DNA of 24,000 nt from Bacteroidota bacterium (GCA_016702705.1 JADJDM010000009.1:58596-82595); one strand, 5' to 3'. Shown: positions 2,988 to 15,698, counted from the first letter of the stretch. The notes: generated by a model from the sequence alone, not told the origin. Translations and numbers: made by a program.

Positions 2988-4985
2988 ATGATTACTGCTG
3001 AAATGCCTGTTAAATTCGAAAGAAAAAAACATAAAGATGAAACTTTATTACAGTTATATAGAAACATATTAAAGCCTCGTATGATTGAAGAAAAGATGTT
3101 AATCTTACTTCGTCAAGGAAAAATTTCGAAATGGTTTTCGGGTATTGGACAAGAAGCAATTTCCGTTGGTGTTGCAACTGCAATGGATAAAGAAGAATTT
3201 ATCTTACCAATGCATCGTAACCTTGGAGTTTTCACAACTCGTGGAATTCCTCTTAATCGTTTGTTCTCTCAGTTCACTGGTAAGCCAGGCGGATTTACAA
3301 AAGGACGTGATCGCTCATTTCATTTTGGAACACAAGAATATAAAATTGTTGGTATGATTTCTCATCTTGGTCCGCAAATGGGTGTGGCAGATGGAATTAG
3401 CTTAGCAAATAAATTAAAAGGAGCAAAATTAGCAACGGCAGTTTTCACGGGCGATGGGGCAACTAGCGAAGGTGATTTTCATGAAAGTATGAACGTTGCT
3501 GCTGTGTGGGATTTACCAGTAATTTTTGTAATTGAAAATAATGGTTACGGACTTTCAACACCAAGTGCAGAGCAATTTAAGTGCAAACAATTTATTGATA
3601 AGGCTATTGGTTACGGAATTGAAGGATTTCAAGTTGATGGAAATAATGTATTAAAAGTATTTGAAGCAGTTAAACGTATTACAGAAGAAATAAGAGAAAG
3701 ACCTCGCCCTGTTTTATTAGAGTGTATGACTTTCCGTATGCGTGGACACGAAGAGGCATCAGGGACAAAATATATTCCTAAAGAATTATTTGAGCAATGG
3801 GGTAAAAAAGATCCAGTTCAAAATTTCGAAAAATGGTTGTTAGATGAAGGTGTGTTGACAGAAGAAATTATCGAAAACATACGTGCTGAATACAAAAAGG
3901 AAATTGAAGATGGTTTAGAAATTACATTTAATGAAACTATCCCAACTCCTGATACAGCATTGGAATTGCGCGATATGTACAAACCATTTGTTAATCCAAA
4001 TATTCAACCAAGTGGAAATAAAACTAACAAACGTTTTATTGATGCCTTATCGGATGGTATGCGCCAAGCAATGCAAAAGCATTCGAATTTGGTGTTGATG
4101 GGACAAGATATTGCAGAGTACGGTGGGGCATTTAAAATTACGGATGGTTTTGTCGCTGAGTTTGGTAAGGCAAGAGTGCGTAATACTCCATTGTGCGAAT
4201 CAGCAATTTTAGGAACAGGTTTTGGTTTAAGTATTAACGGACACAAAGCGATGGTAGAAATGCAGTTCGCTGATTTCGTTTCGGAAGGTATTACACAAAT
4301 TGTAAATAATTTAGCTAAATCGCATTACCGTTGGGGACAACATGCAGATGTAGTTGTGCGTATGCCTACAGGTGCAGGTGTTGCAGCTGGACCATTCCAT
4401 TCACAAAGTAACGAAGCTTGGTTTTTTAAAACACCAGGATTAAAAATTGCTTATCCAGCTTTTCCATCTGATGCAAAAGGATTATTGTTAAGTGCCTTTG
4501 AAGATCCAAATCCTGTTATGTTTTTTGAGCATAAAGGTTTGTATAGAAGTATTACAGAAGATATCTCTGACGATTATTATACTATTCCTTTTGGACAAGC
4601 ACGCCTTGTAAAAGAAGGAACTCAAGTTTCTATTATAACTTACGGAATGGGTGTGCATTGGGCAATTGAGTTGTTAGAAAAACATCCAGAAATTTCTGCA
4701 GACTTAGTTGACTTAAGAACATTAGCACCATTGGATGTAGAAACAATTCATGCTTCTGTCAAGAAAACTGGTAGAGCATTTATTTTGCATGAAGATACCA
4801 TCACTGGTGGAATAGGAGGAGAGTTAAGCGCATTGATTTCTGAACATTGTTTTGAATACTTGGATGCACCTGTTGCACGTGAAGGAAGTTTAGATACTCC
4901 AGTTCCAATGAATGCAGATTTAGAAATTAATTTTTTGCCAAAGGAAAGGTTTGCAAAAAAACTAATTGATTTAATTAACTACTAA
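2988..4985 (+). CDS. Fused E1 alpha/beta component of a 2-oxoacid (branched-chain/2-oxoisovalerate type) dehydrogenase, TPP-dependent
   Basis: This is track ORF 2904..4985, with the start moved to MITAEMPVKFERKK at 2988 because promoter boxes lie inside the longer version. The alpha part has a TPP-binding motif (GDGATSEGDFHESMNVAAVWDLPVIFVIENNGYG). The beta part follows (VLMGQDIAEYGGAFKITDGF...NTPLCESAILGTGFGLS...DLRTLAPLD). Confidence 0.9.
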   Translation: MITAEMPVKFERKKHKDETLLQLYRNILKPRMIEEKMLILLRQGKISKWFSGIGQEAISVGVATAMDKEEFILPMHRNLGVFTTRGIPLNRLFSQFTGKPGGFTKGRDRSFHFGTQEYKIVGMISHLGPQMGVADGISLANKLKGAKLATAVFTGDGATSEGDFHESMNVAAVWDLPVIFVIENNGYGLSTPSAEQFKCKQFIDKAIGYGIEGFQVDGNNVLKVFEAVKRITEEIRERPRPVLLECMTFRMRGHEEASGTKYIPKELFEQWGKKDPVQNFEKWLLDEGVLTEEIIENIRAEYKKEIEDGLEITFNETIPTPDTALELRDMYKPFVNPNIQPSGNKTNKRFIDALSDGMRQAMQKHSNLVLMGQDIAEYGGAFKITDGFVAEFGKARVRNTPLCESAILGTGFGLSINGHKAMVEMQFADFVSEGITQIVNNLAKSHYRWGQHADVVVRMPTGAGVAAGPFHSQSNEAWFFKTPGLKIAYPAFPSDAKGLLLSAFEDPNPVMFFEHKGLYRSITEDISDDYYTIPFGQARLVKEGTQVSIITYGMGVHWAIELLEKHPEISADLVDLRTLAPLDVETIHASVKKTGRAFILHEDTITGGIGGELSALISEHCFEYLDAPVAREGSLDTPVPMNADLEINFLPKERFAKKLIDLINY

Positions 4986-4996
4986 AAATAAAAGAG

Positions 4997-5260
4997 ATGA
5001 AATATATTTTAATCTTAGTAAGTGCTATTCTTCTATTTGCGGCATGTTCTGCAAACATTTCGGAGGTTAAACCTGGTATGACAACTGCTGAAGTTGAAAA
5101 AATATTGGGAAAAGCAAATCAAACTAGTTCTTCTTCAAGTAGTAGCTCAATTAATGATAGTACAGTTACTGAAGTAAGTTCAGCCGAATGGAAATACAAT
5201 GATAAGGGGACAGTTAACTTTGAAAATGACAAGGTTGTAAGCATAGTTCCTGGGAAATAA
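4997..5260 (+). CDS. Small lipoprotein, BamE/SmpA-OmlA-like
   Basis: Lipobox LLFAAC, then KPGMTTAEVEKILGKAN, which resembles the BamE-type motif. It also has a poly-Ser linker. Confidence 0.6.
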   Translation: MKYILILVSAILLFAACSANISEVKPGMTTAEVEKILGKANQTSSSSSSSSINDSTVTEVSSAEWKYNDKGTVNFENDKVVSIVPGK

Positions 5261-5409
5261 TTCATTTATTTTTACCACTTATGGATTGATTTATCGTTTA
5301 AACTAATTAAACCCTGCCGTTTAATAAAAAAGTGTTGCGCGAATAAGTATTTCCTTTACTTTCGCTCTCGGATTCGATAATTACCCTAATCAAACCGATA
5401 AGAACAAAA

Positions 5410-5949
5410 ATGTACTCGATAGAAACGCCACCAATCAAATCTGGGAACACGTATTTTTTTAATACGGATTCAGGTATGAGGTACGAAGTAAGGTTTGGCA
5501 GAAAAAAAGAGAATGCATTATGTGCAACATTGGTATTTGGAGTTGTCAATTGCGATGATGCTGATGAGTATAGCTTAACCAACAGAGGTGAAGTTTGGCA
5601 AGTAATGAATACGATTGTTGAAATTGGTAGAGTATTTATGAGCGAGCACCCAGCAATTTGTTACTACGAAATTTATGCTTTAGAGAAAGAAGATGAAAGT
5701 GAATTCGAAACAAGTTCAAGAATGAATTTGTATTTCAGATTTATTCCACGTCTTTTTAATGATAATTGGAAATTGTTTGTTCTTAATAATAAAGCAATCG
5801 TTCTTAAGAAGGATGTCGAGCATTTGTATGCTTCTGTAATAGCAGATGAATTAAGTCCTAAAGAAACTATAAGTAAAGAAGAAAAGGAAGTAAGTCCGTT
5901 TAGCCTTAATAGATTACTTTCTTTTATTGATAGAAGAAGAATGAATTAA
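5410..5949 (+). CDS. Hypothetical protein (179 aa), no recognisable domain
   Basis: Clean ORF with protein-like composition, followed by a strong terminator. I recognise no motif. Confidence 0.55.
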   Translation: MYSIETPPIKSGNTYFFNTDSGMRYEVRFGRKKENALCATLVFGVVNCDDADEYSLTNRGEVWQVMNTIVEIGRVFMSEHPAICYYEIYALEKEDESEFETSSRMNLYFRFIPRLFNDNWKLFVLNNKAIVLKKDVEHLYASVIADELSPKETISKEEKEVSPFSLNRLLSFIDRRRMN

Positions 5950-5974
5950 TTTTCAAAAGAGGTTTAGTTAAAAG

Positions 5975-6020
5975 CAAAAAAGTCCCGCTATCTTGAACTT
6001 GTCAAGGGCGGGACTTTTTT
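5975..6020. terminator. Bidirectional intrinsic terminator between convergent genes
   Basis: AAAAAAGTCCCGC..(CTTGA ACTTG TCAAG)..GCGGGACTTTTTT. An 8-bp GC stem plus an inner 5-bp stem, with an A-run on the 5' side and a T-run on the 3' side. Confidence 0.8.
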
Positions 6021-6037
6021 ATTAATTAGTTTTTTGA

Positions 6038-7975
6038 TTAGATCACATCACCTTTTTTGTCATCCTTTTTAGCAGTTTTACTGTTTTCTTCAATTGTTTT
6101 CTTTGTCATATCATCCATTAATTTTAAACCAAGTAAACCGCTAATTGGTCCGTTTGGTCCGCCATCTCCAGAGATTAACACATCAGGGATAACTTTGATT
6201 TTATCCTTACCAATTGCTTCCGTAATTTTTAACCGTGTAAAGTTATCGCCACCCATTGCAGTTACCGCAAGGTTATATGATTCTGCATTTGATTTACCAA
6301 TTGCTAAAATCTTCTCTGCTTCTGCTTTACCTGTTACACTAATTTGTTCAGCATTTGCATTAGCTAAAGCTTTAATTTTTTCTGCTTCAGCGTTTGCAGT
6401 TACTTTTGTTTTTTCTGCATCTGCACTTGCAATTACTTTTAACCTGTCAGCTTCTGCATTCGAAGAAATTTTTACACTTTGCGCTTCACCCGTTGCTTTC
6501 TTAACCGCAGCATCTGCAATACGTTCAGAGATTAATACACCTTGATCTGCTTTCACAATTTCTTTTTGCATATCAGCTACCGCAGTTTCTTTTTCTAATG
6601 CCTGACGTGTAACCTCTGCTCTTTTTTGTGTTTCAAAAGTGGTGTTTTGCTCCTCCGCAATTTTACGATCAGTTAATGTTTTCATTAAACTTTCTGGCGG
6701 AACAATATCTCCAATTAAAGTATCTACACCATTTACATTGTATTGATCTAATACTTCACTTATACGTTTTTTCGCTGCGTCTTGTCTTTCCTTACGTGAA
6801 CTTAAGAACGCAATTACATCACTGTCTTGCGCTGAGTTACGGAAGTAGTTACCAATGGTTGGTTCTAATACTTGTCCAACTAAGTTCATCATACTACCAA
6901 AACGTGCAATTACTTTTGGAGCTTCCGTTGTAGGAATGTGAATGATTTGCGATACATCTAAATTAAAAGGGAAACCATCTTTTGAACGCACAGTAATAGT
7001 AGATAAATTTTTATCTAATTGATGTGATTCACTTCTTGCATTTGCCCAGTTTAAAACTAAGTTAGTTGTTGGCACTAATTCAACACGCATAATAAAAGTA
7101 TTGATCGGGTATTTACCTGGCCCTAAAGGCTCAGCCCACACACCTTTTTCACCTTTACTTACAATATTACCATGTTTAAATTCTGCCCCGCTTAAATCTT
7201 TACCATCTTGTCCAACATACGAAATAACAACACCAACATAACCAATTGGAATCTCTGTCATTTTAATTTGCTCTACTTGGATAAACCAAGGATTTAAATA
7301 ATATGAACCCGCTAAAATAATTTCGGGTTGTAAACCTTTGTTACCTCCATTAGCTAAGAAAGCGTCGCAATCTTGGAAATTGTTATGACCTTTAGTTGGT
7401 TTACCTGCAATATTTCCTTCATCAATTGGTAAACCATCCATTGTTGTTACTACACCAACCATGTTTTCGGTAATGTGTGTCATATCATACGTCATGATAT
7501 CAAACAAAAACGTATTGATACGATATGTACCCGCAGTAATAATTGCCGACTGACGTCCTTTACGTCCACCATGATTAAAAAAGGCAGCAGCATCTTGAAA
7601 AGAATCACACTCCACTTTACGAGCTAATATAAATCCTGTTTCTAATTCTGCACCATCTTTCGCCACTAATAAACCAATTTTACCTTCAGGGATAACAGTA
7701 AAACTTTGTTGTTTAATTTCAAATTGCCACACCCAGTACCAAAAGTAAATTCCTGGTGCTAAGCTTTGCGCTTGAAAACCTGCTTCACCATTTACTGCAA
7801 TAATTCTACCTGCAGGTAATTCTTTGTTGGCTCCAAATAAAACAAATTTCTTCGTTACAAGTCCAATCTTGTCTTCAGGGATAATAATAATTCCGAACAG
7901 TCGGAAAATAAGTTTGTAAAAAATTAAACAAACGATTGGGATGAGTACCCACCAATACTTTAATAAAGCTTCCAT
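6038..7975 (-). CDS. Flotillin / SPFH (band-7) family membrane protein, YqiK-like
   Basis: N-terminal TM segment (YWWVLIPIVCLIFYKLIF). SPFH core (ITVRSKDGFPFNLDVSQIIHI...). Ala/Glu-rich flotillin tail (ANAEAEKIKALANANAEQISVTGKAEAEKILAIGKSNAESY). Confidence 0.85.
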   Translation of the reverse strand: MEALLKYWWVLIPIVCLIFYKLIFRLFGIIIIPEDKIGLVTKKFVLFGANKELPAGRIIAVNGEAGFQAQSLAPGIYFWYWVWQFEIKQQSFTVIPEGKIGLLVAKDGAELETGFILARKVECDSFQDAAAFFNHGGRKGRQSAIITAGTYRINTFLFDIMTYDMTHITENMVGVVTTMDGLPIDEGNIAGKPTKGHNNFQDCDAFLANGGNKGLQPEIILAGSYYLNPWFIQVEQIKMTEIPIGYVGVVISYVGQDGKDLSGAEFKHGNIVSKGEKGVWAEPLGPGKYPINTFIMRVELVPTTNLVLNWANARSESHQLDKNLSTITVRSKDGFPFNLDVSQIIHIPTTEAPKVIARFGSMMNLVGQVLEPTIGNYFRNSAQDSDVIAFLSSRKERQDAAKKRISEVLDQYNVNGVDTLIGDIVPPESLMKTLTDRKIAEEQNTTFETQKRAEVTRQALEKETAVADMQKEIVKADQGVLISERIADAAVKKATGEAQSVKISSNAEADRLKVIASADAEKTKVTANAEAEKIKALANANAEQISVTGKAEAEKILAIGKSNAESYNLAVTAMGGDNFTRLKITEAIGKDKIKVIPDVLISGDGGPNGPISGLLGLKLMDDMTKKTIEENSKTAKKDDKKGDVI

Positions 7976-8090
7976 AATAGTATATAAATTTAGTAGAGTA
8001 AATGTACGTGGTCTTGAAATCGCTTTTAAGATTTTATACCGAATAATTTATGAACCGAGAAACGGCTTTATGAACAAAGAAGAAGATTTT

Positions 8091-8714
8091 CTAAGCGTCG
8101 ATTTCACTTACTTTAACAAGAACAAATTTGCAGTTTTCATTACTTGTAATATTAATTTTGTCGCCAACTGTTTTGTTTTCGAAGAGTAGAAAATCTTTTT
8201 GATTTAGTAATTGGTCGTTTGCTATTAAGCTACCTTCGAGCAAATATAAACCTATGAATTTACTTTCGTTGTATAAGTATGATTTGTTAGCGTCTGCAGA
8301 TAGTGTATCAATAGAAAGACTTCCATTCCAGCCGACTTTCATCATTAAATTAAAATCAACCACTTTACCTTTTGCTTTTGTTTCCCATTCTCCATGAAAC
8401 TCATCACATTGGTATTGTTGTAAAATTTTGTTGTGTTGGTTTTTGTGTTCGATAAAAAGTTCGCCTTGCAATATCATCAGTATGCGCTTGTATCCGGGTA
8501 GTTGAGTGAAATTGCTTTCTTCAACTTCAACGGTTGCAGTACTTATTCTGAAATCAAAATTTCGTTCGCTGTATTCAGCTTCTTCAGGATAAATAAATAA
8601 CTCTGTTGTAGTGCCGCCACTCCAGGTACTTATTTTTTGTTGAGCGTAAGAAGTTAATTGCAAGGTTAATTTATTTTTATTTAAAGATAGATTATTTCTC
8701 TTTATCTGCACCAA
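8091..8714 (-). CDS. HutD-family protein
   Basis: STWSGGTTTELFIYPEEA...FDFRISTATVEVEESNFTQLPGYKRILMILQGEL...GKVVDFNLMM matches the HutD pattern (W.GG.T.E, FS.F.G..R, DFNLM). The start is uncertain: the TTG at 8714 overlaps the upstream gene by 23 bp, while an in-frame TTG at 8663 would give about 190 aa. Confidence 0.75.
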   Translation of the reverse strand: MVQIKRNNLSLNKNKLTLQLTSYAQQKISTWSGGTTTELFIYPEEAEYSERNFDFRISTATVEVEESNFTQLPGYKRILMILQGELFIEHKNQHNKILQQYQCDEFHGEWETKAKGKVVDFNLMMKVGWNGSLSIDTLSADANKSYLYNESKFIGLYLLEGSLIANDQLLNQKDFLLFENKTVGDKINITSNENCKFVLVKVSEIDA

Positions 8715-9363
8715 ACTTTGTTGGAAATCTTTGCATTTCGGTTATAGAGTCGGTAAGTGTTATTTGTGTAATGGTAGTGTCACTTAGTCCGCAATAAAAT
8801 TTAATTTCAAGTCCTTTGTTTGGGTAGAAAAATTTGTAATCTGTTTCGCGCGGGGTGTGAAAGAAATTATCGTGCAGCCCAACTTTTTTCTCTACCATAC
8901 TTGGTGTATCGGTATATTTTAAGTTATAGGGTAGCGGTTTTTTGTAATCCTCTGGATAAATAACAATGGATTCGGTTTTAAAACTAGAAGTATATTCATC
9001 ATATGTTTTTTGTAATTCACTTCTTTCTATGTTCATGCCAGCACCTCGCACGCAAATATACATAGAGCCAAACTCATAGTTTAGGTAAGCTGCTGTTGTT
9101 GGGTATGGATAATATTCATCCATAGATGTTGTAAATTTAAAATCACCTAATTGTTTAATTACATTTTTCATGCTATCACTAGCAAGGGGCAAACCAATTA
9201 AACTATATAAATTATCTCCATCAATATTTACTGCAAATGCTTTTGAAGGTTCTCCAATGTTGAGTGGCATACTAAGCTTATCTTTCTTGCCGCTAAAAAA
9301 GCAGGAGGATAGAAGGAGAGTTCCTCCAATAAATAGAATAAAAGGGATTGTGTTTAATCTCAT
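8692..9363 (-). CDS. Hypothetical lipoprotein (223 aa)
   Basis: Signal peptide plus lipobox (FIGGTLLLSSC). No recognisable domain. Confidence 0.7.
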   Translation of the reverse strand: MRLNTIPFILFIGGTLLLSSCFFSGKKDKLSMPLNIGEPSKAFAVNIDGDNLYSLIGLPLASDSMKNVIKQLGDFKFTTSMDEYYPYPTTAAYLNYEFGSMYICVRGAGMNIERSELQKTYDEYTSSFKTESIVIYPEDYKKPLPYNLKYTDTPSMVEKKVGLHDNFFHTPRETDYKFFYPNKGLEIKFYCGLSDTTITQITLTDSITEMQRFPTKFGADKEK

Positions 9364-9470
9364 CTGTTTTCTTAACTTTTTTGATTACAAAAGGAAATTT
9401 AAAGATAATATAATTTACAAAATGAATATTGATTTTATTTATTTCTAACTTCTTGAATAAACAAAACATT

Positions 9471-9541
9471 GGCTCCATCGGAGCCTCCTATTTCTATACT
9501 ACATCAATACTAATGCAGTCAAGCCCCAGCGGGGCGACCTG
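9471..9541. repeat. Left REP doublet (two GC hairpins)
   Basis: GGCTCC-ATC-GGAGCC (9471-9485), then CCTATTTCTA spacer, then AAGCCCCAGCGGGGCGACCTG (9521-9541), which contains the hairpin GCCCC-AGC-GGGGC. The last 21 nt are the exact reverse complement of 10010-10030. Confidence 0.85.
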
Positions 9542-9542
9542 T

Positions 9543-10004
9543 TCATTCTTCGAAGTCGAAAAGATATTTCTGGTCGTAACTAATATCAAAGTCTTTAAGT
9601 AATTCAAGATACTCTTCTTTAAAACGTTTCTTTGTATGATGTCCTTTCTGATTAAGAATATATTTTGCTACTTTGTCTAAATCCCAATGACCATATGAAA
9701 AAGCACCGAAGCCTTCTTGCCAATTAAACTTTCCTTGTATCCAGTTTTGTTCGTTTATGAATTTAGAGTAAGCTGCTTTAATGTCTCTTACTAAATCTGA
9801 AATACTTATTGATGGTTTAAAGCCTACTAATACATGTGTGTGGTCGGGCATACAATAGATGGCAATTAATTTTTGACCTCTGTTTTGTACTATACCCGAA
9901 ATGAACTTTTGCAACTCTTCTCTATTGGTTTCAGAAATAAGATTTTGTCGTCCTTTAACTACGAAGACAATTTGAAGATATATCTGAGTATATGTATTTG
10001 CTAT
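9543..10004 (-). CDS. REP-associated tyrosine transposase (RAYT, IS200/IS605 TnpA-like Y1 HUH enzyme), with no canonical start codon at the family N-terminus
   Basis: Track ORF 9543..9914 starts at a TTG. The frame is open upstream and reads (I)ANTYTQIYLQIVFVVKGRQNLISETNREELQKFISGIVQNRGQKLIAIYCMPDHTHVLVGFKP...AKYILNQKGHH. This carries the HUH motif (HTH) and the catalytic Tyr motif (YxxxQ). The family normally begins M-(A/S)-NTYTQI; here that codon is ATA (10002-10004). Confidence 0.75.
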   Translation of the reverse strand: MANTYTQIYLQIVFVVKGRQNLISETNREELQKFISGIVQNRGQKLIAIYCMPDHTHVLVGFKPSISISDLVRDIKAAYSKFINEQNWIQGKFNWQEGFGAFSYGHWDLDKVAKYILNQKGHHTKKRFKEEYLELLKDFDISYDQKYLFDFEE

Positions 10005-10009
10005 ACTTA

Positions 10010-10080
10010 CAGGTCGCCCCGCTGGGGCTTAATAGGTTTTTGTTTCTAGTTAGTTAGAAATAGGTTGCCCCGATGGGGCT
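10010..10080. repeat. Right REP doublet (inverted copy of the left one)
   Basis: CAGGTCGCCCCGCTGGGGCTT (10010-10030), then TAGAAATAGG spacer, then GCCCC-GAT-GGGGC (10067-10079). The reverse complement aligns with 9471-9541 along its whole length. Confidence 0.85.
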
Positions 10081-10138
10081 TTTAATTTACTTTATGTTCG
10101 CGTTCGCTCGCCATTGTAGTTTTGTACAAACTATATAT

Positions 10139-12379
10139 TTATACCACAATATTTATAATCTTCCCTGGCACCACAATTACTTTCTTAGGTGCTTTACCAT
10201 CTAAGTAAGTTCCTGTTTGTTGTAAAGCAAGAATTTCTTTTTCTACATCTTCTTTGCTTAAGCTTAAATCAAACTCCACGTTAAATCTAACTTTACCATT
10301 AAACGAAACTGGGTAATTGAAAGATGATTCTTTTACAAACTCCTCGTTAAACATAGGGAACGGGGCAAATGCAATGCTTTCTGTATTACCCAATTTTTCC
10401 CAAAGCTCTTCTGTAATATGCGGGGCATAAGGAGAAATTAAAACCAATAGTTGTTCTAAAACTGATTTCTTATTGCATTTTAAATCTGTTAACTCATTTA
10501 CACAAATCATAAAACTACTTACCGACGTGTTAAACGAAAAACGATCGATATCATCTGTGATTTTTTTAATTGTTTTATGTAGTGTTTTTAATTCGTCTTT
10601 TGTTGGAGCTTCAGCGTTTACTTTAGCGCTTCCATCTTCTTGTATATTAAATAATCTCCAAAGTTTTTTTAAGAAACCTGCAACACCTGTAATACCATTC
10701 GTATTCCAAGGCTTGCTTAACTCTAATGGACCTAAAAACATTTCGTAAAGGCGTAATGTATCTGCCCCGAATTTCACACAAATGTCATCAGGAGAAACAA
10801 CGTTCCATTTCGACTTGGACATTTTTTCCACTTCCCATCCACAAATAAATTCGCCATTCTCTTCTTTTTCAAATATTGCTGATTTAAATTCAGGTCTCCA
10901 TTTTATAAATTCATCAATACTTAGAGTATCATTGTGAACAATATTAACATCAACATGAGATTTTGTAATATTAAAACTGGTCAAGTGAATGTCGGAGTTA
11001 GCACCATAAGTTGATGCTATATTTTCTTTTATTACTTTTTCTATTTTGAAATAAGTTTCAGAATCTTTCTTTTCTAATAATTCTGCTATTGATTTAGTGA
11101 CAAAGATTCTTTTTAACTCATTAAAATCAGTATCTCCAGGTCTAACCAACATTGGAGCAACCCAATAGGTATAATTACTTCTGCCTTGTATCATCCCTTG
11201 ATTAATCAACTTCTTAGCAGGTTCATCAAAATTTATAAAACCTCTGTCTTTTAAAAACATGGTCCAAAAACGTACATACAACAAATGCCCCGTTGCATGC
11301 TCGCTACCGCCTAAATACAAATCAACTTGTTGCCAGTAGTCGACTGCGTTTTTACTTACAAATTCTTTTTCGTTGTTGGCATCCATGTAACGCAAAAAGT
11401 ACCACGAGCTTCCTGCCCAGCCTGGCATAGTAGTGTGCTCGTATTCAAATTGCCCTTTGTATTTCCAATCCTTCGCACGTGCTAGTGGCGGCTCACCATC
11501 TTCAGTTGGTAAAAATTTATCTACTTCAGGTAAACGCAATGGCAATTCATCTTCTGGTAACACATGTGGTACTCCGTTTTTGTAATACACTGGAATTGGT
11601 TCACCCCAATAACGCTGGCGACCAAATACGGCATCGCGTAAACGATAATTTATTTTACCTTTACCAATTTCTTTTTTCTCTATTTCTTCAATTGCTTTTT
11701 TAATAGCAGCTTTTACTTCAAGTCCGTTTAAGAAATCGGAGTTAATCATTTTTCCTTCTTTCTCGCCCCAAGCATCTTCATCAAATGAATGAGCAGTAGT
11801 AGGTTCAATTACTTGCGGAAGCGCTAATCCAAAATGTTTTGCAAATTTATAATCGCGGACATCATGCGCGGGAACTGCCATTACAGCGCCTGTTCCGTAA
11901 CCGGCCAATACATAATCACCAACCCAAACTGGAATTGGTTTTCCAGTAAACGGATGCTCAACATAAGCACCAGTAAATACACCAGTAATTTTATTTACAT
12001 CAGCTTGGCGCTCGCGTTCGCTTCTGTTTTTTGCTTTAATAACGTATTCATCAACTGCAGCTTTTTGTTCAGCTGTTGTAATTTCAGTTACTAATTCATG
12101 CTCAGGTGCAAGTGTTACAAACGAAACTCCGAAAATGGTATCAGGGCGAGTGGTGAACACTTCGATGGTTTTAGCCTCTCCCTCCGCCTCCCTCTCCACG
12201 GGAGAGGGAATCGATGCTACTCGAGATTTAATAGAAGCTAAAACAGTATCGTGGTCGTTTAACACTTGTTCGTTTGTAAAGCGAATAACTTCAAAACCTA
12301 ACTTGTTTAATACATCAGTTCTTGCAGCATCTCTTTCTTGTGTTGAATTATGAATTTCACCATCAACTTCGATAATCAA
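10139..12379 (-). CDS. leuS: Leucyl-tRNA synthetase, C-terminal ORF (CP1 editing domain, KMSKS, anticodon-binding and C-terminal domains). The first 69 codons belong to the inserted DUF559 cassette.
   Basis: After MIIEVDGEIH...EAEGEA (cassette) it reads KTIEVFTTRPDTIFGVSFVTLAPEHE (Thr-rich editing motif) ...AVPAHDVRDYKFA...GGSEHATGHLLYVRFW...VEKMSKSKWNVV. The track start is a TTG, in the same frame as the upstream ORF. Confidence 0.9.
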   Translation of the reverse strand: MIIEVDGEIHNSTQERDAARTDVLNKLGFEVIRFTNEQVLNDHDTVLASIKSRVASIPSPVEREAEGEAKTIEVFTTRPDTIFGVSFVTLAPEHELVTEITTAEQKAAVDEYVIKAKNRSERERQADVNKITGVFTGAYVEHPFTGKPIPVWVGDYVLAGYGTGAVMAVPAHDVRDYKFAKHFGLALPQVIEPTTAHSFDEDAWGEKEGKMINSDFLNGLEVKAAIKKAIEEIEKKEIGKGKINYRLRDAVFGRQRYWGEPIPVYYKNGVPHVLPEDELPLRLPEVDKFLPTEDGEPPLARAKDWKYKGQFEYEHTTMPGWAGSSWYFLRYMDANNEKEFVSKNAVDYWQQVDLYLGGSEHATGHLLYVRFWTMFLKDRGFINFDEPAKKLINQGMIQGRSNYTYWVAPMLVRPGDTDFNELKRIFVTKSIAELLEKKDSETYFKIEKVIKENIASTYGANSDIHLTSFNITKSHVDVNIVHNDTLSIDEFIKWRPEFKSAIFEKEENGEFICGWEVEKMSKSKWNVVSPDDICVKFGADTLRLYEMFLGPLELSKPWNTNGITGVAGFLKKLWRLFNIQEDGSAKVNAEAPTKDELKTLHKTIKKITDDIDRFSFNTSVSSFMICVNELTDLKCNKKSVLEQLLVLISPYAPHITEELWEKLGNTESIAFAPFPMFNEEFVKESSFNYPVSFNGKVRFNVEFDLSLSKEDVEKEILALQQTGTYLDGKAPKKVIVVPGKIINIVV

Positions 12380-12613
12380 GTTTTTTTCAATGCAAATAAA
12401 ATCTGCAATGTAAGTTTAGATTGCATGTTGTCTTCTAAACTTAACACCCAAATTTTTATTTCTTACACTTTGCCACAAGGCATCTTCAGCCTCAGTTTGT
12501 GGTTGTCTATTCTCACGCGCAAATTGTTTAAGTAATGTATAGATTTCAGCATTGGCAGTCTGCCAAGAAAACCTATCCCCCTTCTCCCGTGGAGAAGGAC
12601 CGGGGATGAGGCT
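12173..12613 (-). mobile_element. In-frame 441-bp cassette inside leuS: a DUF559 (Vsr-like PD-(D/E)xK) endonuclease domain bracketed by hairpin-forming inverted repeats and interrupted by one TAA
   Basis: The inserted codons read ...[95 protein letters not shown]..., the DUF559 signature. The terminal hairpins are CCCTCTCC-ACG-GGAGAGGG (12190-12208) and CCTTCTCC-CGT-GGAGAAGG (12580-12598), with outer AGCCTC/GAGGCT ends. The outer boundaries are uncertain by a few nt. Confidence 0.75.
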
Positions 12614-13498
12614 GAATCTCAGACTCGACCCCTCACTTCTTCCTATCCAATATCTCTGCGCTTCTTTTAAACTATCTGTCCAATCAATTTTATCTAATCC
12701 ATCTAACAAACGTTGAGAGTATGCAGTAATACGCATGCTCCATTGTTTCATTAATTTTCTTTCTACTGGATATCCACCACGCTCACTAACTCCGTCTTTT
12801 ACTTCATCATTGGCAAGCACTGTTCCTAAAGCGGGGCACCAGTTTACATAAGCTTCACCTAAATAAGCAATACGAAAATTCATTAAAATTTCGCTGCGCT
12901 TTTTCTCAGGAAAGTTTTTCCAATCATTAGGAGAGAAGGCAGTTAATTCTTTTTCAATTTCTCCAGTTAAAATATCATGTGTTAATCCTTTAAAACCTTC
13001 TGTATCGAAAATATGCATCAAGGTTTCAATTGCTTCAGCTTTATTAGTGCGTGGGTTGTACCAGCTGTTGAACAACTGAATAAAAATCCATTGCGTCCAT
13101 TTATAATATTCAGGGTCAGAAGTTCTTACTTCTCTGTCCCAATCAAATGAAAAACCAATTTTGTCTAGTTGCTCGCGGTAACGTGCAATGTTTTGTTCGG
13201 TTGTAATTGCAGGATGTTGCCCCGTTTGTATTGCATATTGCTCAGCAGGTAAACCAAATGAGTCGTAACCCATTGGATGCAATACATTAAATCCTTTATG
13301 ACGTTTGTAACGAGATACAATATCAGAAGCAATATAACCCAGCGGATGACCTACGTGTAAGCCTGCTCCAGATGGGTAAGGAAACATATCTAATACATAG
13401 TATTTTGGTTTTGAACCATCATTACTTGCTTTAAATGTTTTATTAGTAGCCCAGTTCTTTTGCCACTTCTTTTCTATCTCCGTAAAATTGTATTCCAT
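12416..13498 (-). CDS. leuS: Leucyl-tRNA synthetase, N-terminal ORF (first half of the Rossmann fold with HIGH motif). The last 65 codons belong to the inserted cassette, and the ORF ends at an in-frame TAA.
   Basis: [16 protein letters not shown]...[18 protein letters not shown] (HIGH)...[15 protein letters not shown]...[18 protein letters not shown], then cassette sequence up to FRRQHAI-stop. Confidence 0.9.
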
Positions 13499-13592: not shown

Positions 13593-15698
13593 ATGAATAA
13601 AATAGTAAAACTGTTGCTTGTGTTTTTAATTACTGGTTCTTCTTTGTTTGCACAAAAGCAAAGGAAGATAGATAGTTTAAAAACGATGCTTTCGGGCAGT
13701 ATTCATGATACAATAAGAACAAAAACATTAAATGCTTTAGCAAAATTGTATTGGACAAATAATCCAGATACCGCAATGGTATTGGTTCTTCAATCAGAAA
13801 AAGTAGCCGAAAAATTGAAGGATAAAAAGTACCAATGTATTACAACAATTTACAAAGCATATATAATTTCGGCACTAGGTAATTATGATAGTGCTATTGT
13901 AGTTTACCAGCAAGCAATTGATTTATCTAAAAAAAATAAAAAGGATAAACCACTTGGGCAAGCATTAACCGCTTTAGGTAATGTGTATAATATTATTGGC
14001 GATTATGATAGTGCAATTAAATATTATATGGAAGCCTTAACAATTCAGGAGCGACTGGCAGATAAAGTTGGAATGGCAAAAACTTATAATAGTTTGGGTG
14101 TTTTGTTCGAGTGGCAAAAGGATTATAAAAGTGCGCTTAACTACCATAAACAAGCCTTCGTAATAAAAACGGAATTAGAAGATTCTGTTGAAATGGCAAC
14201 ATCTTTAAATAATATGGGAATTGTTTATGAATCGATGAAGGATACGGAGAATGCATTAAAGCATCACCTACAATCATTGGAAATTAGGAAACTTATTGAT
14301 GATAAGAATGGTTTGATTATGTCCTACACAAATTTGGGAAATATTTATTCTCATAATAATAAATCAAAAGAGGCAATTGATTTTTTAAGTAAGGCTTATG
14401 CCTTAGCAATTGAAATAAAAGATAGACTTAATTTGGCTAGAGTTGCCTTTGATTTGGGAAATCATTACTTTATAATTAAAGAGTATGAGAAGGGAGTAAA
14501 ATATATTTTGGAGGCTGAGGGGATTTCAGAGGAAATGGAGATTAAAGAATTACAGAGAGATGTTTATAAAGAGCTTTCAGATTATTTTATAATGAAGAAA
14601 GATTACAAGGCTGCTTTGGATTATTCCTTAAAGTATAGAGATGTAAATGATAGTTTGTACAATGAAAATAAAACAAAGGAGATACAAGGTTTAAATTCGA
14701 AATACCAAAGTGAAAAGAAAGAACAAGAAATAAATTCGCTTAATCAACAAAGTAAAATTCAGCAATTGGATATTAAGCAAAAGAGAACATCTATGTACTC
14801 TTTGTTTGCAGGAGTTTTGTTGTTAATATTAATCGCAATCATTTTATTTAATAGAAATAGAATTAAGCAAAAGGCGAATAAAGAATTAGCCGAAAAAAAT
14901 AATTTGATTGAACATCAAAAGCATCTTGTTGAAGAAAAAAACCATGAAATTACCGATAGTATTAATTACGCTAAACGTATTCAAACTGCTTTGCTGCCTT
15001 CAGAGGATTCATTTAAAGAATTAATCCCGCAATCCTTCGTTTTATTTAAACCAAAGGATATTGTTTCCGGCGATTTCTTTTGGATAAATGGAAAGGATAA
15101 TTTTATTTTTTATGTAGCTGCTGATTGCACCGGGCATGGTGTTCCAGGAGCATTTATGAGTATGTTAGGAACCTCGTTTTTAAATGAAATTATTAATGAA
15201 AAAGATGTTATTGAACCTGGCGATATTTTGGATTTATTGAAAATAAAAATCATCAAATCACTAAAGCAAAAGGGTGAAGTGGGTAGCAATAAAGATGGAA
15301 TGGATATGGTACTTTGCAGGATAGACACTTCAAAAAACGAATTAGTTTTTGCTGCAGCAAATAATCCTTTATGGTTATTAAGAGATGGTGAAATAATTGA
15401 ATACAAAGCCGATAAACAACCTGTAGGTATTGGTTCAGAAGGATTTGAGCATTTTAATCAACATACTATCCAATTACTAAAAGGCGACTTAGTTTATACT
15501 TTTAGTGATGGTTATGCAGATCAATTTGGTGGACCTAAAGGAAAGAAATTTAAGTACAAACAAATGGAGGAAATTATACTTGCAAATGCGAACGAATCAA
15601 TGGAATTCCAAAAGAATGGTTTGGATGAGCGTTTTGAAAAGTGGAGAGGTGAATTGGAGCAAGTAGATGATGTTTGCATCATTGGAGTGAAAATATAA
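13593..15698 (+). CDS. TPR-repeat sensor with one transmembrane segment and a C-terminal PP2C/SpoIIE-type serine phosphatase domain
   Basis: Signal peptide, then multiple TPR units (ALGNVYNIIGDYDSAIKYYMEAL, etc.), a coiled coil and a TM segment (MYSLFAGVLLLILIAIILF). The SpoIIE motifs follow (INYAKRIQTALLP, SGDFFW, ADCTGHGVPGAFMSM, DGMDM, SDGYADQFGG, QVDDVCIIGVKI). Confidence 0.88.
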   Translation: MNKIVKLLLVFLITGSSLFAQKQRKIDSLKTMLSGSIHDTIRTKTLNALAKLYWTNNPDTAMVLVLQSEKVAEKLKDKKYQCITTIYKAYIISALGNYDSAIVVYQQAIDLSKKNKKDKPLGQALTALGNVYNIIGDYDSAIKYYMEALTIQERLADKVGMAKTYNSLGVLFEWQKDYKSALNYHKQAFVIKTELEDSVEMATSLNNMGIVYESMKDTENALKHHLQSLEIRKLIDDKNGLIMSYTNLGNIYSHNNKSKEAIDFLSKAYALAIEIKDRLNLARVAFDLGNHYFIIKEYEKGVKYILEAEGISEEMEIKELQRDVYKELSDYFIMKKDYKAALDYSLKYRDVNDSLYNENKTKEIQGLNSKYQSEKKEQEINSLNQQSKIQQLDIKQKRTSMYSLFAGVLLLILIAIILFNRNRIKQKANKELAEKNNLIEHQKHLVEEKNHEITDSINYAKRIQTALLPSEDSFKELIPQSFVLFKPKDIVSGDFFWINGKDNFIFYVAADCTGHGVPGAFMSMLGTSFLNEIINEKDVIEPGDILDLLKIKIIKSLKQKGEVGSNKDGMDMVLCRIDTSKNELVFAAANNPLWLLRDGEIIEYKADKQPVGIGSEGFEHFNQHTIQLLKGDLVYTFSDGYADQFGGPKGKKFKYKQMEEIILANANESMEFQKNGLDERFEKWRGELEQVDDVCIIGVKI

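Follow-up and report, generated by a model that had tools for sequence, protein, structure and literature searches.

A single in-frame stop codon divides leuS

We examined a 24,000-nucleotide (nt) stretch of a Bacteroidota bacterium assembly (GCA_016702705.1, JADJDM010000009.1:58596-82595), referred to below as the window, in which leuS, the gene for leucyl-tRNA synthetase (LeuRS), is interrupted by one in-frame stop codon inside an inserted DUF559 nuclease cassette (Table 1). The minus-strand leuS frame contains exactly one internal stop, a TAA at codon 361, and its coordinates and frame agree with an original prediction, made from the sequence alone, that had described two same-frame open reading frames (ORFs) of 360 and 746 amino acids (aa) separated by this TAA. 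Twelve sense codons were counted between the stop and the TTG taken as the second start, which is indeed the 13th codon past the TAA. Also as predicted, the HIGH motif (HVGHPLGY) falls in the first ORF and the editing domain, the KMSKS motif, and the anticodon-binding domain fall in the second. The 746-aa ORF comprises the remainder of the nuclease, the 3′ linker, the CP1 editing domain (PF13603), the KMSKS half of the catalytic core, and the anticodon-binding and C-terminal domains; the closest solved structures to the leuS product are the Thermus thermophilus and Escherichia coli LeuRS enzymes. A single stop in 3.3 kb of an otherwise intact, strongly constrained ORF is a discrete lesion, unlike a chance ORF structure.

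Table 1. Features of the interrupted leuS gene and its cassette, in window coordinates
Feature	Coordinates	Strand	Remarks
leuS, 1,119 codons plus terminal TAA, interrupted once	10139..13498	minus	ATG at 13498, terminal TAA at 10139-10141; tRNA-synt_1/1g, LeuRS editing domain, Anticodon_1
N-terminal ORF, 360 aa	12416..13498	minus	First half of catalytic core (HIGH), cassette linker, nuclease α1/α2 and β1
In-frame TAA, codon 361	12416..12418	minus	TCA (Ser) in contig L168
12 sense codons TYIADFICIEKN between TAA and TTG	12380..12415	minus	Nuclease strand β2 with nearly invariant Asp366
TTG, first canonical in-frame start after TAA	12377..12379	minus	
C-terminal ORF, 746 aa, TTG start	10139..12379	minus	Rest of nuclease, editing domain, KMSKS, anticodon-binding domain
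DUF559/Vsr-like PD-(D/E)XK nuclease core	12221..12532	minus	Pfam PF04480
Inverted repeat, left arm AAGTTTAGA	12434..12442	minus	Codons K-F-R; unchanged in L168
Inverted repeat, right arm TCTAAACTT	12412..12420	minus	Holds the TAA; TTTCAACCT in L168
Stretch without counterpart in cassette-less sister contigs L163 and L164	12169..12642	minus	Inserted cassette plus replaced loop
5′ boundary palindrome CCTTCTCC-ACG-GGAGAAGG	12580..12598	either	Encodes PSPREKG
3′ boundary palindrome CCCTCTCC-CGT-GGAGAGGG	12190..12208	either	Encodes PSPVERE
Upstream mosaic (co-conversion-like) tract	12599..12658	minus	~58% identity to cassette-less sisters (56-61% over the 48-60 nt next to the cassette), 90% to cassette-bearing L003
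Downstream reduced-identity tract	12119..12178	minus	~78% identity to cassette-less sisters vs 92-97% further on

The cassette, of ~440 nt, is inserted in frame at the N-terminal edge of CP1, the editing domain. With X standing at the stop, the 148-residue insert aligned with the DUF559 profile PF04480 from position 3 to position 107 of 109 (126 bits, the Pfam gathering score being 20.6; E = 7e-37). As predicted, the TAA lies inside the DUF559 core, between FRRQHAI and TYIADF. A phmmer comparison of the core with Protein Data Bank entry 3HRL gave E = 4.6e-19. An AlphaFold2 model of a homolog (P0121; 88% identical) stood in for the stop-bearing window cassette; its nuclease domain has predicted local distance difference test (pLDDT) values of 88-97, lies between two linkers with pLDDT below 50, and was superimposed on 3HRL by Foldseek with a template modeling score of 0.90 and a root mean square deviation of 1.6 Å over 98 columns. 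The model places the TAA in the turn between β1 and β2 and the TTG at the start of β3. All DUF559 core residues (D in ADF; E-x-D-G; H; D; R) are present in the window frame; D366 falls within the 12 codons after the stop, so that no single translated product holds all of them. A single PD-(D/E)XK clade groups DUF559 and Vsr with I-Bth0305I, a homing endonuclease encoded in an intron (PMC3424549; PMC3239194); the cassette product is a putative DNA-cleaving enzyme.

TAA is a genuine, normal terminator in this DNA. It closes 10 of the 13 natural ORFs in the window, 5 of them, including leuS itself, as TAA-A, and the base following the internal TAA is also A, as the original prediction had stated. 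This usage rules out an alternative genetic code, and a nearby suppressor tRNA was ruled out by the lack of any tRNA gene in the window. The downstream TTG is an ordinary leucine codon of the nuclease, present as TTG in 21 of 67 homologs, which rules it out as an adapted start. A makes up 53% of the 15 nt upstream of it; the mean for the gene starts of the window is 42%.

Comparison with a same-species contig points to a template switch

Same-species contigs were reached from NCBI metagenome assemblies by exact look-up of two small neighboring proteins; equivalent look-ups with the 360-aa and 746-aa ORFs, the 701-aa neighbor, the 280-aa receptor fragment, and the E1 dehydrogenase gave no match. 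One of them, L168 (JAHZTO010020013.1; 9,321 nt), is collinear with window positions 13381..4061; the two are 98.8% identical, differing by 109 mismatches and a single gap column, which is intergenic. L168 carries the same cassette (434 of 438 nt identical), and its leuS is one ORF, with 1,080 residues between the contig edge and the natural stop. Around codon 361 it reads CAT GCA ATT TCA ACC TAC ATA GCA, where the window reads CAT GCA ATC TAA ACT TAC ATT GCA. Across the 956 nt from 12653 to 11697, which take in the cassette and 470 nt beyond it, the two sequences differ only at 12419, 12417, 12413, and 12407. An origin of the stop from GAA, deduced at first from another species (L005), was dropped once L168 showed TCA; the corresponding codon in other species is GGA, GAA, GAT, CAT, AAA, or GCA.

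Three of the four differences perfect an inverted repeat. The right arm, which holds the stop, is complementary to the unchanged left arm at 6 of 9 positions in L168; the changes at 12419, 12417, and 12413 raise this to 9 of 9, so that the window arm reverse-complements the left arm exactly, across a 13-nt loop. In comparison with outgroups, the window bases at 12419 and 12417, at least, proved to be the derived ones. Single-mismatch sites of such inverted repeats make up only ~0.8% of window positions. The extended hairpin occurs only in the window (z = −2.3 and −3.1, vs −1.4 to +1.6 in 21 relatives). Mutagenesis by template switching at quasi-palindromes is established, and its signature is a cluster of changes that perfect a repeat (PMC7202029).

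We conclude, with a probability of roughly 0.8, that the TAA is a one-off, recent lesion of the template-switch type in a gene that is normally expressed as one chain. This figure covers that core statement only; a working two-piece LeuRS and an artifactual origin of the stop are both contained within it and are not added to it. In the normal state, leuS in this lineage carries a mobile, in-frame, palindrome-bounded DUF559 cassette and is translated as one chain. A single polymerase template switch across the quasi-palindrome would then have copied the complement of the left arm into the right arm, converting ATT TCA ACC to ATC TAA ACT and Ser361 to a stop, as the sequence signature suggests. 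Such a switch, whether in the cell or during amplification or assembly, appears to describe the changes better than a random miscall. The original prediction had listed a sequencing error among its explanations; the sense codon in L168 agrees with that idea, but a random miscall is unlikely because three coordinated changes perfect an adjacent inverted repeat, and we consider a plain base miscall very improbable. On balance we lean, though only slightly, toward the change being truly present in the leuS gene of this strain.

If real, the stop has to be one that the cell tolerates, as LeuRS is essential. The likeliest survival route would then be termination at the TAA and reinitiation 36 nt downstream at TTG 12379, yielding products of ~40 kDa (the HIGH half) and ~85 kDa (CP1, KMSKS, and anticodon-binding regions) that would reassemble through the catalytic-core interface. 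Codons 362-373 would be in neither product after such a restart. The nuclease would be dead, and the suggestion in the original prediction that the two half-nuclease segments clamp the enzyme together is weakened, because β2 with its nearly invariant Asp would be skipped.

Several points weigh against the template-switch proposal. The TAA haplotype is seen in assembled sequence, not in reads that would give its frequency or its linkage to the leuS flanks, and the presumed immediate ancestor is represented by one relative at 98.8% identity. The difference at 12407 (A/T) lies outside the simple template-switch register and may be an unrelated synonymous polymorphism. Use of the TTG and assembly of the fragments are proposals, and the TTG is a leucine codon that predates the stop and shows no adaptation. 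A nonsense codon at consensus frequency in an essential gene argues for either tolerance or artifact. Finally, the window holds a second broken gene, encoding a TonB-dependent receptor with an apparent −1 frameshift. This frameshift, together with a transposase gene that has no ATG, prompted us to consider a generally error-prone assembly. That idea was weakened by the comparison with L168, which shows no coding insertions or deletions (indels) over 9.3 kb; an error-ridden assembly is unlikely because L168 agrees in this way and shares the ATG-less IS200-like gene.

Constraint on leuS and the fate of the interrupted gene

Decay of this leuS copy, one of the explanations originally offered, is disfavored. 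Lineage-specific changes in the leuS flanks of the cassette are 17 synonymous to 0 nonsynonymous upstream and 20 to 1 downstream, and leuS is judged not to be decaying because of this overall ratio of 37 to 1. Within the window cassette we found one further unique change at otherwise invariant columns, from L to I, and the cassette is no outlier. The gene thus shows one lesion in 3.3 kb, rather than the relaxed constraint and multiple lesions of a pseudogene. A dead copy whose activity is supplied by a second or imported leuS is formally possible, since the comparison covered the window and the retrieved loci, and we rate it as improbable: purifying selection has been very strong until now, the same locus is intact in L168, and none of the genomes behind the 80 related loci described below gave two leuS loci.

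The 37-to-1 ratio applies to both halves of the gene, up to the present, and this is one of the observations compatible with an accidental two-piece LeuRS, in which translation stops at the TAA and restarts at the TTG or a codon near it, and the fragments of 360 and 746 aa come together again as an active enzyme. Gene fission would in that case have found a permissive site in the cassette. The domain that holds the stop is an inserted, dispensable one at the hinge before CP1, and crystallized isolated CP1 editing domains start exactly at the cassette insertion point. E. coli IleRS and MetRS split in or near CP1 reportedly reassemble in vivo, according to work by Shiba and Schimmel in 1992 and by Burbaum and Schimmel in 1991. 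The leader of the TTG is A-rich and AT-rich, like those of real starts in the window; the sequence is probably accurate, given 9.3 kb without coding indels against an independent assembly; and a natural α/β LeuRS exists in Aquifex (PMC3643597). Opposed to these points, the arrangement was found in no other strain or species compared, the TTG is unadapted as a start, and the 12 codons that include β2 would be lost, leaving the nuclease halves unlikely to act as a clamp. This scheme, proposed from sequence, is tentative. The heterodimer of the original prediction thus survives as a possible accident of one strain, but not as an evolved state.

A third possibility is that the TAA patch lies outside the working leuS, as a short patch from a near-identical cassette copy or minority variant that was misjoined during assembly or polishing, or as a template-switch product of whole-genome or PCR amplification that came to prevail at a site of low coverage, with LeuRS remaining a single chain. 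The cassette is repeated, mobile, and present in many genes. Our genome and metagenome contig scans yielded no locus from the same strain; the contig with the best-matching locus (L046; 93% nt identity), from a related genome, ends inside the cassette, and leuS is often broken by assembly errors in public assemblies of these organisms. Inverted repeats trigger sequence-specific errors and false single-nucleotide polymorphisms in Illumina data (PMC3141275) and could be a source of error here, and a nonsense codon in an essential gene is suspect a priori. Against an artifact, the match to L168 at 434 of 438 nt means that any donor copy must be an extremely recent duplicate, and none of the retrieved loci holds a second copy of the window version of the cassette. 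There is also no indel disagreement with L168, and three coordinated changes are unlike lagging-phase miscalls. We regard an artifact of this kind as a possibility to be taken seriously, though not as the probable outcome.

Other carriers have an uninterrupted leuS with a conserved cassette

To place the cassette in a wider context, leuS was surveyed in one genome per species, which returned 80 related loci, and in metagenome contigs. Approximately 43 of the 80 leuS loci carry the cassette at the CP1 site, including those of cultured Mariniflexile and Chitinophagaceae strains; the cassette-bearing loci are numbered L003-L043 and L083-L096 and represent more than 40 Bacteroidota species. A stop within the cassette was found in none of the 42 checked cassette-bearing leuS loci from other Bacteroidota species, nor in any of ~17 metagenome loci. 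leuS is uninterrupted in all 42 checked carriers but one, a nanopore bin that is frameshifted outside the cassette.

The interval between WIGRS and FTTRPDT measures 159 residues with the cassette and 18 without it, a net gain of 141 codons. Aligned with solved LeuRS structures, the cassette falls in the loop just before the threonine-rich FTTRPDT, at roughly T. thermophilus residues 236-241. One cassette-less locus (L063) lacks 12169-12606. The two boundary palindromes are the only GC-rich palindromes of their type in the window, where none are expected by chance. Palindromes of 8-10 bp with covarying arms were found at both cassette ends in ~35 of 41 loci, against a median best stem of 5 bp in control regions.

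Pairwise ratios of nonsynonymous to synonymous substitution rates were 0.08-0.21 for the cassette and 0.03-0.15 for the adjacent leuS sequence, a similar range; the cassette is thus kept as a protein under purifying selection and is not merely held open. Its in-frame position and amino acid-level constraint in all carriers show that it is translated, not removed. An Rfam search found no intron or ribozyme, and a Pfam search found no intein or Hint domain; removal of the cassette as an intron, ribozyme, or intein was ruled out by these negatives. The conserved state is a single-chain LeuRS of ~1,119 residues in which the nuclease is an extra globular domain on flexible linkers.

These comparisons bear on two further explanations of the stop: an evolved, maintained split resembling the Aquifex α/β enzyme, and programmed recoding, readthrough, or bypass of the stop or cassette. 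The stop does lie within a local hairpin (z = −2.3), and the isoleucine codon before it, ATC, recurs in frame 15 codons on, resembling on paper the take-off and landing sites of a ribosomal hop. On the other side, the hairpin is missing in relatives, the stop is confined to the window, and TAA-A closes five normal genes there. No intron, ribozyme, or intein domain was found, nor any tRNA gene in the window, and the amino acid-level constraint on the in-frame cassette in all carriers also opposes bypass. An evolved split is disfavored because neither the nearest relative nor any other carrier has the arrangement. Taken together, these routes seem highly unlikely, and the RNA- or translation-level bypass raised in the original prediction found no support. 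Old pseudogenization is likewise disfavored by the sequence comparisons.

The TAA itself is an event of an ordinary kind, namely, a strain-specific nonsense lesion, with a quasi-palindrome template switch as its likeliest source, or an artifact. Neither a natural split LeuRS nor recoding should be reported for this locus. Should the TAA be real and tolerated, gene fission would have been caught in the act, and such cassettes would create permissive break points in essential genes; if it is real in living cells, it would serve as a natural experiment on the splitting of essential multidomain enzymes.

Cassette mobility and related insertions

The surrounding cassette is a more novel object than the TAA. 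The N-terminal parts of LeuRS encoded by contigs L163 (P0122) and L164 (P0123) are 99% identical in amino acid sequence to that of the window, and both lack the cassette (...GSSLQFKTQDSKHTIEVFTTRPDT...); the empty site of L163 reads ...TCGTTGCAATTCAAAACTCAAGATTCAAAACATACTATTGAAGTA.... The upstream mosaic tract, with its low identity to these sisters, adjoins 230 nt at 96% identity to them; as far as 12659 the identity stays at 95-100%, and past the downstream tract, where the signal is weaker, it recovers to ~95%. Such mosaic flanks look like the trace that co-conversion would leave when the cassette is gained or lost through homologous exchange.

Divergence between L168 and the window is also uneven, at ~6% in the N-terminal 720 nt of leuS (13381-12653) and 0-0.4% in the remainder of the gene, cassette included. 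This contrast indicates recombination between strains, its breakpoint lying close to or at the cassette's 5′ edge.

Related insertions were seen at other sites. Two loci (L085 and L089) have two cassettes in one leuS, and three (L090, L091, and L110) have an insertion at a second leuS site, after AKDWKY. The nuclease family is also found in frame in metH (L097/L098), valS (L158), and hsdM (L099), as N-terminal fusions to hisF (L157) and gmk (P0034 and P0089), and in a GAF protein (P0019). In L116 the nuclease lies in a large ORF that resembles restriction-modification sequences, and free-standing nuclease ORFs of 120-170 aa occur as well. All examples examined of insertions or fusions outside the CP1 site are uninterrupted. 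Nuclease-less, in-frame footprints of palindrome-encoded peptides (e.g., APSNSPKGGESSSANPSPLGRSGGA and SPSPVGEGRGEV) were found at the leuS site in L048, L079, and L082, with more short palindrome-type inserts in L085, L089, L097, and L158; the footprints may be either MITE-like derivatives (MITE, miniature inverted-repeat transposable element) or leftovers of cassette loss. On these patterns, the cassette appears to behave like a homing element that needs neither intron nor intein and whose cleavage activity is predicted. No description of an in-frame DUF559 cassette in leuS was found in the literature searched, which is not proof of absence.

Neighboring loci and annotation

An IS200/Y1-transposase-like gene resembling those of REP-associated tyrosine transposases (RAYTs; REP, repetitive extragenic palindrome) lies at 9500-10140 on the minus strand. 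Its conserved N-terminus, ANTYTQIYLQIVF, is in frame, with ATA in place of ATG, and GC-rich hairpins (AAGCCCCAGCGGGGCGACCTG) border the gene, two of them upstream and one downstream. L168 has an identical region, which the sister contig L164 lacks, making this a recent REP/RAYT-type insertion beside leuS. On the other side of leuS, a gene for a 701-aa TPR-SpoIIE phosphatase (13593-15698) is also found in L163 and L165 and is missing from L046, so that close lineages differ slightly in gene content here. The TonB-dependent receptor gene (CarboxypepD_reg and Plug domains; minus strand, from ~1615-2457 to the window start) has its apparent −1 frameshift near 1660-1670 (GGTTTAATGAACGAG), beyond which the barrel continues in another frame and off the window edge.

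In public assemblies, leuS is broken or frameshifted in or near the cassette in L046 (by the contig end), L001, L002, L045, L163, L164, P0138, P0149, P0183, and P0213, and the NCBI product name for such genes is "DUF559 domain-containing protein, partial." Truncated LeuRS-DUF559 proteins on long public contigs were considered as evidence of recurrent splits and rejected, since all end in frameshift garbage and represent assembly noise. Naming by DUF559, or splitting, is an annotation trap that makes an essential synthetase look missing or broken.

Comparison with known systems

The changes at the TAA resemble quasi-palindrome mutations described in E. coli and yeast (PMC7202029), in that clustered changes take a 6/9 repeat to 9/9 around a 13-nt loop in what would be one event. 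They differ in that the event is deduced here from two natural sequences and not from a reporter, an in vitro origin is equally possible, and one of the four clustered leuS differences lies off the simple register.

In Aquifex aeolicus, the α/β LeuRS is split in the leucine-specific domain, and this is the normal state of the species (PMC3643597), in agreement with the original prediction that the Aquifex break is at a different site. As in Aquifex, the window encodes two polypeptides, with HIGH on one and KMSKS and the tRNA-binding parts on the other. In contrast, the break in the window precedes CP1, outside the leucine-specific domain and within a foreign domain. It is confined to one strain, L168 and all other carriers having one ORF, and has no dedicated second start, the only candidate being the TTG with its A-rich leader. 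Artificially split class I synthetases tolerate breaks in or next to CP1, and their Rossmann-fold halves reassemble. The split IleRS and MetRS enzymes were engineered, however, with a start signal for each piece, whereas a two-piece LeuRS is here proposed by analogy.

Like the Vsr-like/EDxHD homing endonucleases (I-Bth0305I) and the split-intein "fractured genes," the cassette places a Vsr-clade nuclease inside conserved regions of essential genes. It occupies a conserved site of its host gene, is patchy among close relatives, and has flanks that look co-converted. Unlike those elements, it is housed in neither an intron nor an intein, is translated within the host protein, and has GC-rich terminal palindromes. 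In its palindromes and its in-frame tolerance it recalls Rickettsia palindromic elements and MITE-like repeats, which are palindrome-bounded mobile DNA tolerated in frame in the surface loops of housekeeping proteins; nuclease-less in-frame footprints are also seen here (L048, L079, L082, and L085). Rickettsia palindromic elements encode no enzyme, whereas the leuS cassette carries a conserved, selected nuclease domain.

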